Origin: a virus
Lineage: Duplodnaviria; Caudoviricetes
IMG/VR virus record: IMGVR_UViG_3300028805_000070
Location: 69,083-133,082 of that record
Strand: one strand, 5' to 3'
Length of the DNA stretch: 64,000 nucleotides
Position numbers and translations under genes: made by a program. Below, in pieces: positions 55,447 to 62,567 of the stretch; position 1 is the stretch's first letter; the number at the start of each line of letters is the position of its first letter. The notes below the pieces were generated by a model that worked only from the letters and a program-made list of their open reading frames with translations, had not been told where the DNA came from and did not search any database.

Positions 55447-55986
55447 TTATGGCCACTCTCCAAGCGGCATTCCAAGTCCTGCACGCTCTACATTGGTGTT
55501 GAAGAATACACCTTCGGTCGCGGGGCCAGTTAGAAGTTCGTTCGCAATTGTCTCATACAAAGTACTAATAACACCATGGCAATCATTTAGATTATCGGCC
55601 GCGAACTGCACAACACAATTGTTAAATACAACATAGGTAGTACCAATCCACTGATAGCCTTCTTCCGCGGGGCAGACAGAATACGCATAGGCAGGATTTC
55701 CCTTAAACGCAGTTTCAAATAGCACAACCTTGCTCTTGAAGGTGCGATTACTTGGAACTCCATCAATCATTATCTTTAGCTTAATATTGCCAAAACTTAC
55801 TTCTTCAGGTAGAATCTGTAGAAGAGCGGCTACTTTGTCTCCATTGTTACAAGAAAGAACAACAGAAGGATGCTCGCCACTAAAATCGACATTAAAAGCA
55901 ATTTGAGGATCGCCATCAAATAGAGCTTCTAGCTTGCGTACCACGATAGTCCAGGGCGGTAGGATTTTTAGTCTGGGTTCATTCAT
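55447..55986 (-). CDS. hypothetical phage protein
   Basis: SD GGAGGT, 179-aa ORF. Confidence 0.7.
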   Translation of the reverse strand: MNEPRLKILPPWTIVVRKLEALFDGDPQIAFNVDFSGEHPSVVLSCNNGDKVAALLQILPEEVSFGNIKLKIMIDGVPSNRTFKSKVVLFETAFKGNPAYAYSVCPAEEGYQWIGTTYVVFNNCVVQFAADNLNDCHGVISTLYETIANELLTGPATEGVFFNTNVERAGLGMPLGEWP

Positions 55987-56028
55987 ATTATAGGTACCTC
56001 CAAAATGAATTTACGCTTTTGCGCAAAG

Positions 56029-56100
56029 TCTCCAGCCGACGATTTGAACGCCGATTCCATGGTCCGTAGCCATGTGTTCTATCCCTTAGACTAGCCGGAG
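56029..56100 (-). tRNA. tRNA-Arg(ACG)
   Basis: CATGG-CTACGGA-CCATG. Confidence 0.85.
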
Positions 56101-56580
56101 AAGCAGGACGCGCTCTCGCGCACCCGAAAACTCCTTGTACACTTGGTACATGAGATTGAGGAGACCATTACTTTGCTTTCTTATATACCGCTTTCCACTA
56201 AGCCACATATCAACAACCTTATTGGGTCACTTAAATTGGCTTCTCTAATTCAGTTATTGCCGGTGGTAGTTTATCGTCTCCATAAATCCATGTTAGCGGT
56301 TCTGCCATCTCTTTCCCGTGGGCTCTTGTTATAACGGAATTTGGTACCAACCCAAGCTTCTATCCTTTCGGTCTTGCCATACGCCAAGAGAGATGGTGGA
56401 AGGCGCCGACTAGTATATTCTCCATGGATGCCGGTCGGCTCAGCACGGTATTCATTCCTACCGAGGACGTTGTGCTACCTTTATGGGCCGTGGTGCGCTT
56501 GCAAAGCCTAGGCGTGAACCCTCTCGCAGTAGTAGCACGGGATGCGTCAAATCCATCCACTGGGTTGTCAGCTGAACAAC
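56101..56580 (-). ncRNA. Large structured RNA A (AGAACCGC...GCGGTATATAA family)
   Basis: Non-coding GC-rich gap between tRNAs; motif at 56296-56303 and 56181-56191. Confidence 0.55.
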
Positions 56581-56585
56581 AATCG

Positions 56586-56659
56586 TACCTCTCGTGAGAT
56601 TCGGACTCACACTTTACATGTTTTGAGCGTGTCATCTCTGCCAGTTGGATTAGAGAGGC
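56586..56659 (-). tRNA. tRNA-Leu(CAA), short variable arm
   Basis: ACACG-CTCAAAA-CATGT. Confidence 0.8.
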
Positions 56660-56767
56660 ATGGACGGGATTTTTGACAAGAACCCGAAAACTTGCCGCAA
56701 TATTTGTGGAATTGGCCAGCACGTTCCTGGTTGCGAAGTTTACCTCCCATGGGATTAGAGAGGCATA

Positions 56768-56853
56768 TGGTGCGCCGGGGTGGAGTCGAACCACCGATGT
56801 TTCTTCGTCGCGGATTTACAGTCCGCTGTCTTCGCCACTGGACATACCGACGC
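56768..56853 (-). tRNA. tRNA-Tyr(GTA)
   Basis: GCGGA-CTGTAAA-TCCGC, ACCA end. Confidence 0.9.
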
Positions 56854-56963
56854 ATATAAATGGGAAGCTTCCCGCGTAGCAACGGTTATCCCTATCCCTG
56901 CAGGTTTGATTTCTGGAGCTCAACCTACTGAACATCTCCGAAGCCTTTCATGCTACTATGGCC

Positions 56964-57038
56964 TGGTACCGGTGGGTGGATTTGGACCACCGACCCACAG
57001 GATATGAATCTGTTGCTCTACCACTGAGCTACACCGGC
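56964..57038 (-). tRNA. tRNA-Met/Ile2(CAT)
   Basis: Loop TTCATAT, ACCA end. Confidence 0.85.
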
Positions 57039-57257
57039 ATATTACCAACCACTCGCGTCCCACCGCCCTGTTCTACTTGCTTAGTAGTATAACGATAATC
57101 ATTACTGTATGACTACTATTTCAGACCATACCGCCTACCCTTACCCACATTCGTGGCATCCATCGCGGCTTCCTTATTCGTACTTCCGCCTACTCCTCAT
57201 GATTATCTTCTACATTCGTCAAGTAGTCATGCGCCAAAGCCTTGTCCGTTGGTAGAG

Positions 57258-57328
57258 AGCCTCCAGACGGATTTGAACCGCCAGTTCCATATTACAAATA
57301 TGGAGTATTACCATTATACTATAGAGGC
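57258..57328 (-). tRNA. tRNA-Thr(TGT)
   Basis: CCATA-TTTGTAA-TATGG. Confidence 0.88.
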
Positions 57329-57331
57329 AGA

Positions 57332-57403
57332 AGCCGCTAGCTAGAATTAAACCAGCATCGCTGCTTTACGAGAACAATATAATAACCATTATACTATAGC
57401 GGC
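57332..57403 (-). tRNA. tRNA-Thr(CGT)
   Basis: Loop CTCGTAA; degenerate T loop. Confidence 0.7.
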
Positions 57404-58150
57404 TTATATTTTCTCCCAATCTTCATCAGAATAAGAATTAATTTCTTTCTTAGTTCTTGGCAATTGTAATTTATCACACCACTTTCTTACCGTATTACCA
57501 TCTACATTAAAATTACGTCCTAATTGTTCAAATGAGATATTTCTAATCATATTTTTTAATTCATCTCGTGCTGGTAATTCAACTTTTGTTTGATGCTTTA
57601 ATGCACATTCTTTACAACGTTTTGCACCTTTAGTAATTTTTTTCCCACATTCAATACAATAGCTATGAATTTCAGTAGTATGTATTGTTTTATTATTTAT
57701 CTGTACTATTTGTATTGGACCATTCATTTGCTGTACTATTTTACTTAATTCATAATCTCTTGCGGGTGTAATATTTTTAGTACTACCTTGTAAAGTTATA
57801 TCACTAAGATATAAGCTTTTTTGAGTCTCACCACAAATTTCTACTGGAACTAAATATGAAGTACCATTGAAATAAGTATAAAAATAATCAATTTCATCTG
57901 TAGTATATGTATGCTCTAATACTTCTTTTGTATTTCCTCGTATACTGGTTGTTTTAAATGAAATACTTGTTCCATATTCATTTAATAAACTAGTTTTACA
58001 TTGTATACGTTTTAACTGTCCTCCAATATCAGCAATATAATCATAACGACAATCATGTGATATTGGTTTACTCAACATAATACCCAATTCAGTAAAAGCT
58101 AATTGACAATAAGTTTCAGTTATAAGTCCTTTTTGATTAGTTTCATTCAT
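57404..58150 (-). CDS. PD-(D/E)XK endonuclease with Zn finger and HTH
   Basis: KGLITE, RYDYIAD, RIQCKT, YTTDEIDYF, CIECG..RCKEC, HTH. Confidence 0.8.
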   Translation of the reverse strand: MNETNQKGLITETYCQLAFTELGIMLSKPISHDCRYDYIADIGGQLKRIQCKTSLLNEYGTSISFKTTSIRGNTKEVLEHTYTTDEIDYFYTYFNGTSYLVPVEICGETQKSLYLSDITLQGSTKNITPARDYELSKIVQQMNGPIQIVQINNKTIHTTEIHSYCIECGKKITKGAKRCKECALKHQTKVELPARDELKNMIRNISFEQLGRNFNVDGNTVRKWCDKLQLPRTKKEINSYSDEDWEKI

Positions 58151-58631
58151 AATATCACTCTCCTGATATTTAAAATATATTTGGGCTTGCGGAAGAGCGC
58201 ATTACTCGTTGGTTAATTACTCCAACGCTACCCCAGTACTACCATTATACGATGGAGGCAGATTGGGAGAAGTCAGTCATTCCTAATGCTCCCTGGAGTT
58301 CAACTTATATCCCGCCTAAAAATGACACTCATCGGCGGCATACAAGAAAGATTGTTCTTTCTCGGGATCTCTCCCCTTGGTACATTAATATTATAACAAA
58401 ATTTTTATTAAAAGTCAAATATTAGATTTTTGGAGTTCCATTATAGCAGTCATTTAAAATTACGAGTATGAAAAATATAACGAGTATAAGTAATCCCCAA
58501 CTCATAGTTATCATCTCAGTATGCGATACGCATTGTTAGGAAGAGGAATAGAAGGATAAGTATAGGGATAAAGAAGAGTTTCTTCATATGCATCAACTCC
58601 ATATAGAAAATGCCCCATTTAATGGGGCGAG

Positions 58632-58715
58632 TCCGGGTGGTGGGATTCGAACCCACAAGGAGCTACGCTCCGACAGATTTTAAGTCTGTTGCCTGGGCCG
58701 TTCGGCTACACCCGG
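58632..58715 (-). tRNA. tRNA-Leu(TAA)
   Basis: ACAGA-CTTAAAA-TCTGT, long variable arm. Confidence 0.9.
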
Positions 58716-58827
58716 ATAAAATACAGGATTTGTTCGCCATACGTCTATGGTCAAGCAGAGTATTAAGTGAAGTAGCTTCTCATCACTCCTGTAAATTTGA
58801 TAGTATATAACCCTTACCACACTATCA

Positions 58828-59272
58828 TTGCGCTCTAGAAACGCCGGTTTTGTTGTCGGGAACCATCACTCTCTTTATATACCGCAAGTTACCGGCGGTT
58901 CTTGATTTCGGGGAACTTCCCCTGCGGCCAAGAGAAGCCTTATCTACGGCGCGGAGTGGTATCCGGCGTAGGGGAGGACCCGGGCCTTACAGCCAGCCCT
59001 AATGGTAGTTTTTCCTCATACTGGAGATTGCTAAGGAAAATGCAACTAGTACTCAGCGCCATTCTCGACGCTGACATTTACCTTTCATACAAAGCGTGTA
59101 CTCATTAAGCACACACCCACGGCTTTTGTTTTAGCTCCCATCTTATAAAAGCCGTAAAACCGGAGCACAACTAGTTCCGACATTTATAACGCGCACATCT
59201 CAGTTGTCAGCAATTGCGCGGGCGAAGGGTCTATTTTTTACTTGCTTACTACCATCGTCCATTAAAGCGCAA
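58828..59272 (-). ncRNA. Large structured RNA B (AGAACCGC...GCGGTATATAA family)
   Basis: 10-bp terminal helix TTGCGCTTTA/TAGAGCGCAA; long-range pairs CCGGTTTT/AAAACCGG and GGGAGCTA/TGGTTCCC. Confidence 0.6.
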
Positions 59273-59347
59273 GTGTCCGTTTCCTATGATAGAATACCTC
59301 GACCAGAGCAGGCTCCGAGCGGTACAACGGCTCATACTATCAAAATA

Positions 59348-59410
59348 CTAGGCACATTTGAAAACTTTTTAATAGCAAGTTGTTCCTCATAGGGTTGCTG
59401 TGTGTGCCTA
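59348..59410 (-). ncRNA. CAGCA-stem RNA 4
   Basis: TAGGCACAC-ACAGCAA...TGTGCCTAG. Confidence 0.7.
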
Positions 59411-59413
59411 TAG

Positions 59414-59475
59414 CATGACACCTTATATTTCATCAGAATATATGTAAGTGATTATAATATTGCTGTCGGTGTCAT
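59414..59475 (-). ncRNA. CAGCA-stem RNA 5 (anticodon-like loop CUGAUGA)
   Basis: ATGACACCG-ACAGCAA...ATATT-CTGATGA-AATAT...GGTGTCATG. Confidence 0.7.
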
Positions 59476-59561
59476 TTTAAATACCAAGGCCCTCGCATAT
59501 ACATAATATATGGATACCTTGTGCCTCCTGCTATAGTAGGTCGGTCTGTCTTGCACTTTAT

Positions 59562-60179
59562 TTATTCTTCTATATAATATTTCCATTTGTATCCACCAGA
59601 AGTTTTGTTAGGATTTTTACACGCTTTGGAAATATTACTATGATCTCCTTTTATTGCTTTAGCAGCAGCGGATACAGAAGGAAAAATTTGTATAATCTCA
59701 TTAGTATTTATATCTATTTGTGCAACAGGTCTGGCTTTATATTTATTATTCTAATTAGTATTTAATTTAGATTGCTTTATGGCAGTTTGAACTGTTTCTT
59801 TTGCACAATGATATTTTCGAGCAATGGCTAAAATTCCCATTCCAGATAAAAAATCATCAATAAATAAATCATAATTATATAATTGTTTTCCATCACCGCC
59901 ATGAGTAGCATTATATCCATTATGAAATGTATTTAATTCATTAATCCAATATTTTTCTCGTTCTTCTAATATAGATAATTCACATTTTTCAAGCTATGAA
60001 ACTGAGAAATGTTCAATTCCATATTTATTCATAGCATCATATAAAGGTCGTTTTTCACATCGAGAGCGTGTAGAATCTTTTATATGCTCTCTAAACCTTT
60101 TTTCTATAGTGTCAGTGGTTTTTCCTACATACTATTTCCCATTAATATCATTTGTAATACAATAAATAAAACCTGTCAT
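59562..60179 (-). CDS. GIY-YIG/NUMOD1 homing endonuclease (3 in-frame TAG)
   Basis: GFIYCITNDINGK*YVGKT...RF.EH...EREKYWI...GYNAT.GGDG...FPSVSAAA...GGYKW. Confidence 0.88.
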
Positions 60180-60274
60180 AATAATTCCTCCTATGAATTA
60201 AAATTGTGGCCGGTAATAGGAGTACCTTAATCTCGTTGGTCATGACTCCAACGCTACCCAAAATATAAAATATA

Positions 60275-60393
60275 CAAGACACACTTTAACCGCGCTTCTG
60301 CCAATTGAGCGACCTCCCATCAGCTGGGAGGGTTGGAGTCGAACCAACACTTGACGGGCTCCCTAAGCAAAGAAAATAATGCTGATGTGTCTT
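60275..60393 (-). ncRNA. CAGCA-stem RNA 6: YrlA-like Y RNA with circularly permuted tRNA domain
   Basis: AAGACACAT-CAGCAT...T arm GTTGG-TTCGACT-CCAAC, closed acceptor CCTCCCA-GCTGA-TGGGAGG, D arm GCTCAATTGGCAGAAGC...GTGTGTCTTG. Confidence 0.8.
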
Positions 60394-60398
60394 TAAAG

Positions 60399-60469
60399 CG
60401 GCCCCTGAGAGAATCGGACTCCCATCAAGCGGTTAACAGCCGCCCGCTTTACCATTAAGCTAAGGGGCC
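60399..60469 (-). tRNA. tRNA-Asn(GTT)
   Basis: GGCGG-CTGTTAA-CCGCT. Confidence 0.9.
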
Positions 60470-60560
60470 AAATATTGCCTACCCAAAGTTCCTCAAATGA
60501 GGCGGAACAGGCGGCTAATAGTGTTCCTTATGATGGCTCAGGCGGGATACCCTTGCCGAG

Positions 60561-60633
60561 TGGCACAGACAAGAATCGAACTTGCATTTGTTGGGTATGA
60601 GCCAACTGTCCTAAGCCTTTAGACGACCGTGCG
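60561..60633 (-). tRNA. tRNA-Met(CAT), initiator-like 1:72 mismatch
   Basis: GTTGG-CTCATAC-CCAAC; C1 unpaired. Confidence 0.8.
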
Positions 60634-60731
60634 ATATAAAAAGGTCAACTTGTAGCTATCAAGCTGACCGAGGTAATCCTAGCTACAGAAACCATACCAT
60701 AAGCGCACCTTCTGCCGAGTCGCCAATACGC

Positions 60732-60918
60732 GGCGACCCGCTGGACTTGAACCAGTTCTCTATGTATAGGCTGTCCCTCTTCTCAGATTGGCCCTGAGAT
60801 ACGGCCGCAACTTTTTTAAACACGTACAGTTGCTGGTACAATCGCGATACCCTCAGAGGATTTGAACCTTCATCTCCGCCACTGGCGTTGTTTTCTCCAA
60901 CTTAAACTATCTTTGGGC
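60732..60918 (-). pseudogene. Two degenerate tRNA-like elements (60732-60808 and 60848-60918)
   Basis: T arms (CTGG-TTCAAGT-CCAG; GAAGGTTCAAATCCTC) and acceptor-like ends but no canonical anticodon arm. Confidence 0.45.
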
Positions 60919-60924
60919 ATATAA

Positions 60925-61760
60925 GGAGCTTGATATCCGAGCCTCCCAACCTCGGTCATATGATACCGCCGATTCAGAGTAGGCAGCGAGTTTCCCGACT
61001 TGCTCTGACAAATCTGTTGGTTCCTCATATCATATGAAAGACTACCAAGCTAGTAGCAGTTTGCTCTTGCTTGTAGACACCGGCTTATTTTATATACCGC
61101 GGACGGTGCGCGGCACCTTTTTTTTACGTGGGTTATGTATCCACGGAGGTTGCTCGTCGCAACCCGCTTCATAGAGCGGCCTCGATTTTTTATCCTCGGT
61201 CTCTCCGAGACCAACGGCCTACTCCGGGCTTACTCCGGTATTCCGATGCGCTTCGTTTGGTGTCTTATGCGCGTTTCAGGCTTGCAATCCTGCGAGAGCA
61301 TCCGACGTCCGGCTCTCCTGCCGGTCGGCAGCTTCCCTCCCATCGGTTCTTCAGCCAAATACCAATTCATCGACTGGACTACTAATGTTTATACTCGTAA
61401 GCTCTACCGAGTGTTCCGGCCTACACATTGTGACGAGGAGTGGGCGGCGAAGAACGCGGTTCTTCTAATCCACTTACTTTGTTCTAGGTAGCTACTCCTA
61501 GCCAAACGGAGCCTTCTCCATATTTCTCTCGTTTTTCAGCCGTTAAGTTTTCCGCCTAAGCGAGGATAACTTATAACCCATACGCGTACTATGTTTGCAC
61601 TGCCATCTCGCTGCGTTGCATAACAGATGAATCTTCTGCGACCTAGCCGGCTCCTTTTGATGTTCTCGGACATCTGCGTGTGGGGAGTCTAGATATACCT
61701 TCTCACTTAACCGCTCAACTGCATCTTTTACTTGCACCAGTGAGAGGCAAGCCCATTATA
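60925..61760 (-). ncRNA. Large structured RNA C of about 800 nt (AGAACCGC...GCGGTATATAA family; ROOL/GOLLD size class)
   Basis: No credible ORF, GC-rich, many hairpins; motif at 61456-61463 and 61090-61100; boundaries approximate. Confidence 0.55.
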
Positions 61761-61765
61761 TGGGA

Positions 61766-61824
61766 CTAGGCGCATCAATATTATATTACCCTCTAATATA
61801 TATAAATATTGCTGTAAGCGCCTA
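61766..61824 (-). ncRNA. CAGCA-stem RNA 7
   Basis: TAGGCGCTT-ACAGCAA...GCGCCTAG. Confidence 0.7.
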
Positions 61825-61827
61825 TAG

Positions 61828-61948
61828 TCCGCCACCCTGGACTCGAACCAGGGACACACGGCTTATTGGTGGAGCCCAAGAGTGCTGCCCTCTCGTAAAG
61901 CCTAGCAAGCCCCAAGGCCGCCGCTCTAACCGACTGAGCTAGTGGCGG
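61828..61948 (-). tRNA. tRNA-Ile(TAT) interrupted in the anticodon by a 47-nt mini-tRNA-like insert (61867-61913)
   Basis: Canonical acceptor, D and T arms; GCGGC-CTT[insert]ATAA-GCCGT. Confidence 0.8.
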
Positions 61949-62567
61949 ATAAAATCAGCAGTGCAAGCAGTCATCTTACCAAGCGCGGCATCGCCATCCG
62001 AGCGGCGTGCCCAGTTGACTAAACTGGGAAGCAAGTCACCGCTTGAGGATTTGAACCTCTACACTACGTTCCTACCCTTTCAACATATTTATTATAACAT
62101 AATTTTTATTGAAAGTCAAATATTAGTCAAGGAAATTTTCAACCAGATTTTCCGTAGAGTAACCAATGCTTTCGATAAAGCGCGCAAAGGCATCGCACAC
62201 ATCGGGCAACTTGATACCAGATTCATTTGAAATAGTTATTTCTACGTCTTCCGTGGGTATCTCGCTATCCTTATCTTCATCTTCAAAAGTATACCAGAAT
62301 CTAATCGTTTCCATCTCTTTCCCTTCCTTTCGTAAATATTATACCTTAATTTTCCTCTTTTGTCAAGTAATCGTTTTCCAAATCTTCAATAGACCAATCT
62401 TCATCTTCAAGTTCTTCCCAAGAGAAATTCATAATGAAATCATCTAGCATCAATTTCGCCCCTTTCTCTTCCTTACAAACATATTATAACAAAAATTCAA
62501 TTAAAAGTCAAATAAAAAACTCCGTATATTTCAGAAACTAATTGCGTTAGCCTGATAGGGATACGGA

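Follow-up and report, generated by a model that had tools for sequence, protein, structure and literature searches.

What do three gene-free stretches inside the transfer RNA (tRNA) array of a tailed rumen phage encode, and why do they share the same pair of short sequences? The question is raised by the IMG/VR record IMGVR_UViG_3300028805_000070. The last 64 kb of this 133-kb phage record, for which completeness is estimated at 75%, form the window analysed here (64,000 nucleotides (nt), positions 69,083 to 133,082 of the record). ARAGORN places 20 tRNA genes on the minus strand of the window, between 49.4 and 62.9 kb, and the G+C content, about 0.28–0.40 in coding parts, reaches 0.48–0.54 in the three gene-free stretches, referred to below as regions A, B and C. 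Each carries on the minus strand the sequence AGAACCGC, followed by the 11-mer GCGGTATATAA, at 56296–56303 and 56181–56191 in A, 58895–58902 and 58875–58885 in B, and 61456–61463 and 61090–61100 in C; these positions, and the spacings of 104, 9 and 355 nt between the two halves, agree with the original prediction. That prediction regarded the regions as a paralogous family of ornate RNAs of 450–800 nt, each built around one AGAACCGC...GCGGTATATAA helix enclosing an expandable domain. Comparison with related phages leads to a different answer. The regions do encode structured RNA, as had been proposed, and the shared element is very probably a small pseudoknot, here called the knot, lodged in mosaics of separate modules. 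What the knot does is a more tentative matter: a stabilising role is favoured, and the explanation as a whole, which joins the structure of the knot, its settings, the mosaic and this stabilising role, is given an even chance of being right.

The core sequence is rare and confined to one strand. The 133-kb genome as a whole contains GCGGTATATAA exactly three times, in each case on the minus (tRNA) strand, where simple arithmetic predicts about 0.06, and AGAACCGC is found five times in the window against 0.94 expected, a count reached in none of 100 shuffles. A fourth, variant copy (GGCGG-G-ATATAA), which had been missed earlier, lies on the minus strand at 58305–58338. Its stem pairs 58334–58338 with 58312–58316 across a 17-nt loop, and one spacer G precedes AUAUAA (58305–58310). 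This copy is situated 45–80 nt downstream of a near-consensus promoter at 58390–58418 (minus strand; TTGACT, 17 nt, TG-TATAAT).

Three parts make up the predicted H-type pseudoknot: a 5-bp stem, S1 (ACCGN/N'CGGU), an A/U-rich strand, AUAUAA, and a second stem, S2, in which the loop of S1 pairs with the bases just 3' of AUAUAA. In all copies of the 11-mer in the related loci, the base preceding CGGT is always matched by a complementary upstream ACCGN, although this upstream strand may lie anywhere from 5 to 124 nt away from its partner. When the same sequences are aligned, the part of the loop immediately ahead of the S1 3' strand is complementary to the bases that follow ATATAA directly. This complementarity has a mean score of 5.33 over 24 distinct compact contexts, compared with 3.76 when partners are swapped, and none of 5000 permutations reaches the observed value. 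Thirty further knot contexts from IMG/VR provide independent cases, including the compensated pair AGAGCA/TGCTCT versus AGGACA/TGTCCT. Interleaved stems, together with the covariation in region A described below and an S2 complementarity above that of swapped controls in compact copies, are the features of an H-type pseudoknot, and there is little doubt that the shared core forms a real one. As a portable module, the knot is new to Rfam 15.

The most complete evidence for the fold comes from region A, which contains a discrete, predicted pseudoknotted RNA gene of about 140 nt with the knot as its scaffold, named type A (56160–56300, minus strand; 136.8 bits with its covariance model, R1). In the alignment of homologs, helix S1 pairs 56296–56300 with 56187–56191 and is followed by the A/U strand at 56181–56186; S2 joins 56196–56202 to 56171–56175, S3 joins 56273–56281 to 56160–56168, and S4 joins 56263–56266 to 56203–56206, beyond which lies a variable domain at about 56207–56262. 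Since S1 crosses both S2 and S3, the type A fold would be a true pseudoknot. Pairing holds in 92.8% of alignment cells over S1–S4 (23 distinct homologs, 25 pairs), against 32–42% when partners are slid by one to three columns, and compensatory change on both sides is seen in 12 of the 25 pairs. The covariation score is 0.313, against 0.099 in shuffled alignments, none of which (0 of 500) reaches it. One S1 pair illustrates this pattern well, being U-A in 14 homologs, C-G in eight and A-U in one.

These results uphold the proposed ACCGC/GCGGT pairing in region A, across the full 104 nt. The suggestion that this helix encloses an expandable domain also holds for type A, because the apical part past S4 exists in at least three unrelated versions of 8–69 nt. 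Another shared sequence, AGTRATGGTYYCC, had been noted downstream in both A and B and is indeed present in both; in A it takes part in the covarying helix S3 (GGAGAC/GTCTCC). In distant members of the family S1 is replaced wholesale with its pairing kept, giving five further stem versions, and the A/U-rich, UAUAA-like strand that follows S1 is retained. Conservation begins exactly at the first base of S1. Model R1 returns one match per phage locus (41 of 78 sources), in every case on the strand that carries the tRNAs; when the model is run on the genome of this phage itself, type A is its sole significant match. No Rfam family matches the 191 bases of this locus when they are searched alone at E≤10. 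Type A is, on this comparative evidence, a new and well-supported family of predicted RNAs of 100–170 bases, present in a single copy per phage. A CsrA site, read from the conserved ACAYGGAU, was considered for type A and dropped, as the GGA is lost in two loci (L117 and L118).

How the rest of each region is put together became visible in 70 related phage loci, which were fetched through a neighbouring protein of 179 amino acids. This conserved protein is encoded at 55447–55986 (minus strand), directly after the array, and matches neither a Pfam nor a PHROG family; in relatives, most type A RNAs sit between a few hundred and about 1,700 nt upstream of its gene. By blastn, pieces of A, B and C are found separately in these loci, in other orders and at other places. 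The closest relative (contig G001, read as locus L019) shows this in all three regions. Compared with A it is missing 166 nt, the gap ending exactly at the first base of ACCGC; compared with B it is missing about 170 nt, which correspond to the cow-rumen-3 domain discussed below; and with C it has only the first ~340 nt in common, after which a tRNA-Gly follows instead.

Around type A, three further modules can be told apart, all on the minus strand. Module a1 (56471–56584), 114 nt following tRNA-Leu(CAA), occurs in many relatives, joined to other partners. The segment missing from L019, module a2 (56306–56470, about 166 nt), abuts the 5' edge of S1; L029 and L068 have its 3' half on its own. 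Module a4 (56101–56159) consists of two hairpins before tRNA-Arg(ACG) and in some relatives stands directly after a1 (L078, L031, L042). A global alignment of A, B and C finds similarity only in the short core, which does not bear out a paralogous family of large RNAs. Regions A and C do not behave as single large RNAs at all: their pieces are not collinear in relatives, and the sole long-range pair proposed for C was assigned to the wrong partner. As judged from these comparisons, the three regions are mosaics of predicted modules and not paralogous ornate RNAs.

In region C, the S1 partner of GCGGT is GCCGC at 61110–61114, located only 9 nt upstream, as in all C-type homologs. The third AGAACCGC, to which the pairing had been attributed, lies in its own 7-bp hairpin (61449–61465, minus strand; fold z-score −2.36), which is identical in L026. 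Given this separate hairpin and the 9-nt partner seen in all C-type homologs, the expandable insert of 355 nt in C is unsupported. What is conserved is a compact C-type unit of about 75–95 nt (61040–61114, minus strand), in which S1 pairs 61110–61114 with 61096–61100 around a 9-nt loop, AUAUAA occupies 61090–61095, S2 pairs 61104–61109 with 61077–61082, and two hairpins follow the knot. This unit starts at S1, and the sequence upstream of it differs between phages.

Region B is the one case in which a large RNA is well founded. The long-range closing helix proposed for it exists, pairing 59334–59344 with 58796–58806, and it recurs in five family members, where it spans 374–597 nt; it measures 11 nt in the window and 12 bp in homologs. 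RNA B (58796–59344, minus strand) is thus predicted to be about 550 nt long, with a further conserved 3' domain (58716–58795) extending to tRNA-Leu(UAA). RNAalifold applied to five B-family members gives 110 pairs, 20 of which show compensatory change. The bases equivalent to AGTRATGGTYYCC form part of a conserved B-family segment, and the upstream hairpin proposed as their partner is missing from most B homologs.

The large RNAs that the original prediction had weighed as possible relatives are not recovered: GOLLD, ROOL, OLE, HEARO, RNase P RNA and group I and II introns all give zero cmscan matches, over the window at gathering scores and over 55500–62500 at E≤10. One known motif does appear. 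An internal domain of RNA B (58973–59117, minus strand) matches the cow-rumen-3 motif (RF03083) over the full model, positions 1–141, with 115.1 bits against a gathering score of 86.7 (E 1e-25); the membership holds for this single domain of RNA B, and the domain is deleted in the B-family relative L026. Cow-rumen-3 is an orphan structured RNA from rumen sequence, included in the motif survey of Weinberg et al. 2017 (PMC5737381). Here, by contrast, it lies inside an RNA that is some 550 nt long and closed by a helix, and the domain excludes the knot. RNA B therefore extends this orphan motif, which is a domain of a much larger RNA. ROOL and GOLLD resemble RNA B in their rumen or phage origin, their position beside tRNA genes and their similar size (PMC5737381, PMC12286853), but neither model matches even at E≤10, and A and C are not single large RNAs.

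The knot has a looser place in RNA B than in the other two regions. Its copy in the window (58866–58899, minus strand) pairs 58895–58899 with 58881–58885 around a 9-nt loop, followed by AUAUAA at 58875–58880 and a weak S2. Both in the window and in L026 this copy lies near the 3' end of the RNA, where relatives have another hairpin or nothing. In L069, L029 and L036 a copy is found close to the 5' end, where the corresponding site of the window is empty. All five B-family members (the window, L026, L069, L029 and L036) thus have a single knot, in differing places. From these alignments the knot is described as a predicted peripheral plug-in of RNA B, flexible in position and kept in presence.

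The knot also extends beyond this group of phages. The exact pattern recurs between the genes of unrelated phage contigs, of which some are rich in G+C, and similar knots lie in tRNA-rich regions as well; a contig has one to four copies, grouped close to tRNA genes or non-coding regions. Contig G004 carries tandem knots with other stem sequences, in which AUAUAA and the loop complement are kept. Three pattern matches in bacterial genomes were set aside as chance occurrences inside coding sequence, and a generic scan for a stem, ATATAA and a loop complement proved too unspecific, with 3–5 matches per strand against 2.2 in shuffled sequence. Searches of an annotated phage collection returned matches to nuclease-gene and tRNA pieces only. 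Rfam at permissive thresholds, applied to the region, type A, L019 and seven loci of other phages, gave only tRNAs, cow-rumen-3, cow-rumen-4 and noise.

What, then, might such a knot contribute to the RNAs that carry it? Type A units, and those of a further type D, start 23–48 nt after the 3' end of a tRNA. Conservation of C-type units begins exactly at the 5' strand of S1, apparently likewise in type D, and the 166-nt indel of A borders directly on the 5' side of this stem. In the favoured proposal, the modules would share transcripts with the tRNAs, from which tRNA-processing enzymes would release them. Compactly folded and resistant to nucleases, the knot would then lock and shield the 5' edge of the RNA that it heads, and a conserved host factor might also dock on its surface; it would be neither a catalytic core nor a promoter. 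This stabilising role is suggested because the knot heads units 23–48 nt past a tRNA, because breaks fall at its 5' edge, and because its position in the B family is flexible with its presence kept. Strong Shine-Dalgarno sites and the TTGACT/TATAAT promoter fit a Firmicutes-like host. RNase J, an exonuclease that works from 5' to 3', is present in such hosts, where structures at the 5' end stabilise RNA.

A similar arrangement is familiar from other phages. Species 1 and 2 of T4 and RNA1 and RNA2 of T5 are small stable RNAs encoded in phage tRNA clusters, and like type A they are non-tRNA genes among tRNA genes whose products are presumably freed by tRNA-processing enzymes. Type A is set apart from them by description, being pseudoknotted and not tRNA-shaped.

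Several observations weigh against this explanation. In B and in so-called E-type copies the knot is internal and not 5'-terminal. The UAUAA-like strand resembles a −10 element, which makes a function at the DNA level possible. S2 is weak in the B knot of the window and differs from that of the L026 copy, and a competing long-range helix of 12 positions (58891–58905 with 58834–58848) could form at the same place. Finally, the knots of unrelated phages were fetched by exact pattern, so the invariance of their S1 is partly a sampling bias, and the stems of G004 do vary. The functional part of the explanation, a compact, nuclease-resistant and end-locking fold, is accordingly offered as a tentative proposal that may well prove wrong.

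A bolder interpretation, which seems rather unlikely, makes the knot a portable RNA tag that many phage lineages have grafted onto unrelated RNAs for the sake of a single host machine or defence nuclease. The tagged RNAs would include type A, the C-type unit, the cow-rumen-3 RNA and the 5' regions of operons, and the machine could be an RNase, RNA polymerase or the ribosome. RNAs marked in this way would be recognised, spared, or able to block the host machine or defence nuclease.

The knot might instead be a processing signal or a small ribozyme, with an RNase, or the RNA itself, cutting at the 5' edge of S1 and so freeing units from the array transcript. The coincidence of unit boundaries with the S1 5' strand would suit such a role, as would the knots that lie among tRNAs or, in other phages, between genes, sometimes in tandem. 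Cutting at every copy, on the other hand, would break apart those B-family RNAs that carry the knot internally. S1 is fully replaceable in type A, which leaves few candidate catalytic bases in a minimal knot, and the topology of a 9-nt S1 loop is unlike HDV-like or pistol folds; the P2 and P3 helices of the HDV-like fold would be too large for such a loop. No Rfam ribozyme family matches: HDV-like, pistol, hatchet, twister and hammerhead models gave zero hits to type A at E≤10 and to the knots of other phages at E≤1. This explanation is improbable.

No less improbable is an element that RNA polymerase reads in cis, as it does HK022 put, or a tag for docking a conserved host machine, needed once per transcript at any position. 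The flexible placement of one copy in each of five B-family RNAs would be expected of such an element, and so would the occurrence of the same short sequence in unrelated phages of differing G+C content, which argues that the partner is a conserved one of the host and not a protein specific to one lineage. S1 is not invariant in sequence in type A or G004, however, and the case is purely inferential.

Riboswitches also come to mind, given that the preQ1-I aptamer is a classical H-type pseudoknot with an A-rich strand over a 5-bp stem. The knot resembles it in its 5-bp first stem, the short second stem between loop and 3' tail, the A/U-rich crossing strand and a size of about 35–45 nt. It differs in that its first loop can exceed 100 nt in length, it does not precede a regulated gene, and it is without a conserved ligand pocket, since S2 varies freely. 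Models of preQ1-I and other pseudoknot riboswitches gave zero Rfam matches in the region, type A and the knots of other phages, and a riboswitch was rejected on the free variation of S2 and on the copies found in tRNA arrays and inside other RNAs. A group I intron, in which P7 encloses P3' and P8, was likewise rejected: only 9 nt lie between the B strands, and the models give no match.

A signal at the DNA level has a small chance of being correct. The motif would then be a phage promoter with a TATATAA-type −10 and no −35, or an operator on the inverted repeat ACCGC-N9-GCGGT. It is intergenic and co-oriented with genes in several phages, its half-sites are symmetrical, and the UAUAA/TATAAT-like hexamer persists where S1 changes. 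The covariation of S2, S3 and S4 across the motif nevertheless places both sides in one RNA. The S1 spacing of 5–124 nt and the limited number of copies, one to four per contig clustered near tRNAs, also speak against such a signal, and the fourth copy lies downstream of a real promoter. A scan of 55900–62000 for sigma-70-like −35/−10 pairs with 16–18 bp spacing found none at the three exact copies; the stretch holds 14 such sites, against 15.5 expected from shuffling. A general promoter was therefore rejected on copy number, the sigma-70 scan and the covariation across the motif.

An anti-defence decoy is credited with an equally small chance. Type A and its kin would bind and block a host nuclease, an idea modelled on type III antitoxin RNAs or on tRNA-array products directed against defences that cut tRNAs. 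Their location in a phage tRNA array, the pseudoknot architecture, the tandem copies of G004 and the conservation of single-copy type A across many phages all suit this role; the Rfam searches, in contrast, reveal no likeness to ToxI or other catalogued families. Also against a decoy, a gene for the TROVE protein (Ro60, PF05731) was not found in this genome (G000) or in five other motif-bearing contigs, several of which are incomplete. Weak YrlA-like matches (RF02553) do occur near knot-bearing regions, at 60294–60349 (19.8 bits, cut-off 69) and in L019 at 2584–2652 (30.5 bits). A link to Y RNA or YrlA and Ro60 was rejected, as YrlA stays below its cut-off and TROVE was not found; the knot and type A do not match YrlA, and the Y RNAs described so far have no pseudoknot (PMC4201824).

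Least probable, and already largely refuted, is the paralogous family itself: the motif pair does occur three times on one strand, A has a covarying long-range S1 with a variable insert and B is large with a closing helix, but the regions are alike only in their core, modules recombine freely among relatives, the partner in C lies 9 and not 355 nt away, and the knot is optional at its site in the B family.

The array around these RNAs has several features of its own; those given here with coordinates lie on the minus strand. It holds four nuclease genes that are free-standing and of homing type (one GIY-YIG, two PD-(D/E)XK_5 and one HNH), and they probably drove the shuffling of modules. Between RNA modules stands the GIY-YIG/NUMOD1 gene (59562–60179), whose reading frame is open only if its three in-frame TAG codons are read as an amino acid; the neighbouring PD-(D/E)XK_5 gene (57404–58150) has no TAG codon. 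The phage probably reads TAG as an amino acid, given these three codons and the presence in relatives of a tRNA with anticodon CUA. Ahead of each of these two nuclease genes stand a piece resembling the 5' half of a tRNA (58200–58290 and 60230–60330) and then a common leader of about 30 nt, GGGTAGCGTTGGAGT..ACCAACGAG; the first of the two pieces looks like a partial duplicate of tRNA-Thr. A terminator-like hairpin at 58612–58628 lies directly after tRNA-Leu(UAA), upstream of the promoter at 58390–58418; with a terminator-like hairpin and an internal promoter, the array would not be one single transcription unit.

Unusual tRNA-like sequences are also present. One additional gene, at 61828–61948 (minus strand, 121 nt), has an insert of about 47 nt in its anticodon loop; it was detected by cmscan at a permissive threshold (Rfam tRNA, 50.9 bits) and by ARAGORN in intron mode only, and L019 has an uninterrupted tRNA-Ile(UAU) at the matching site. 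At 60294–60395 (minus strand) a T-arm and 3' acceptor strand are directly followed by a 5' acceptor strand and D-arm, so that the sequence looks like a circularly permuted tRNA. Two more tRNA-like stretches, called by neither ARAGORN nor Rfam, lie at 60740–60920 (minus strand), between RNA C and tRNA-Met. In related phages the suppressor tRNA(CUA) contains an insert of about 175 nt (L029, 1106–1368; L057, 11407–11672; also L104, L110, L111 and L120). This insert includes a stretch (AGAUAAAGUCC) resembling the J8/7-P7 signature of group I introns and may be a small group I intron. None of the introns predicted in the loci analysed here contains the knot. In L019, a cow-rumen-4 RNA (RF02948, 67.7 bits) occupies 165–230, just upstream of the tRNA array of that relative.

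The tRNA arrays of phages have come to be regarded as weapons in a struggle over host translation and over defences that cut tRNAs, and the non-tRNA RNAs that they contain are almost wholly unexplained. Here, three vaguely defined large RNAs have been resolved into defined parts, among them a new RNA gene family with a ready covariance model. If the knot is indeed a portable tag, it would represent a new class of modular RNA element, with a logic like that of kink-turns or tetraloop receptors yet specific to phages, and type A would be the dedicated stand-alone gene of this tag. The flexible place of the knot, together with its kept presence, makes it a clear handle for finding out what such RNAs do.

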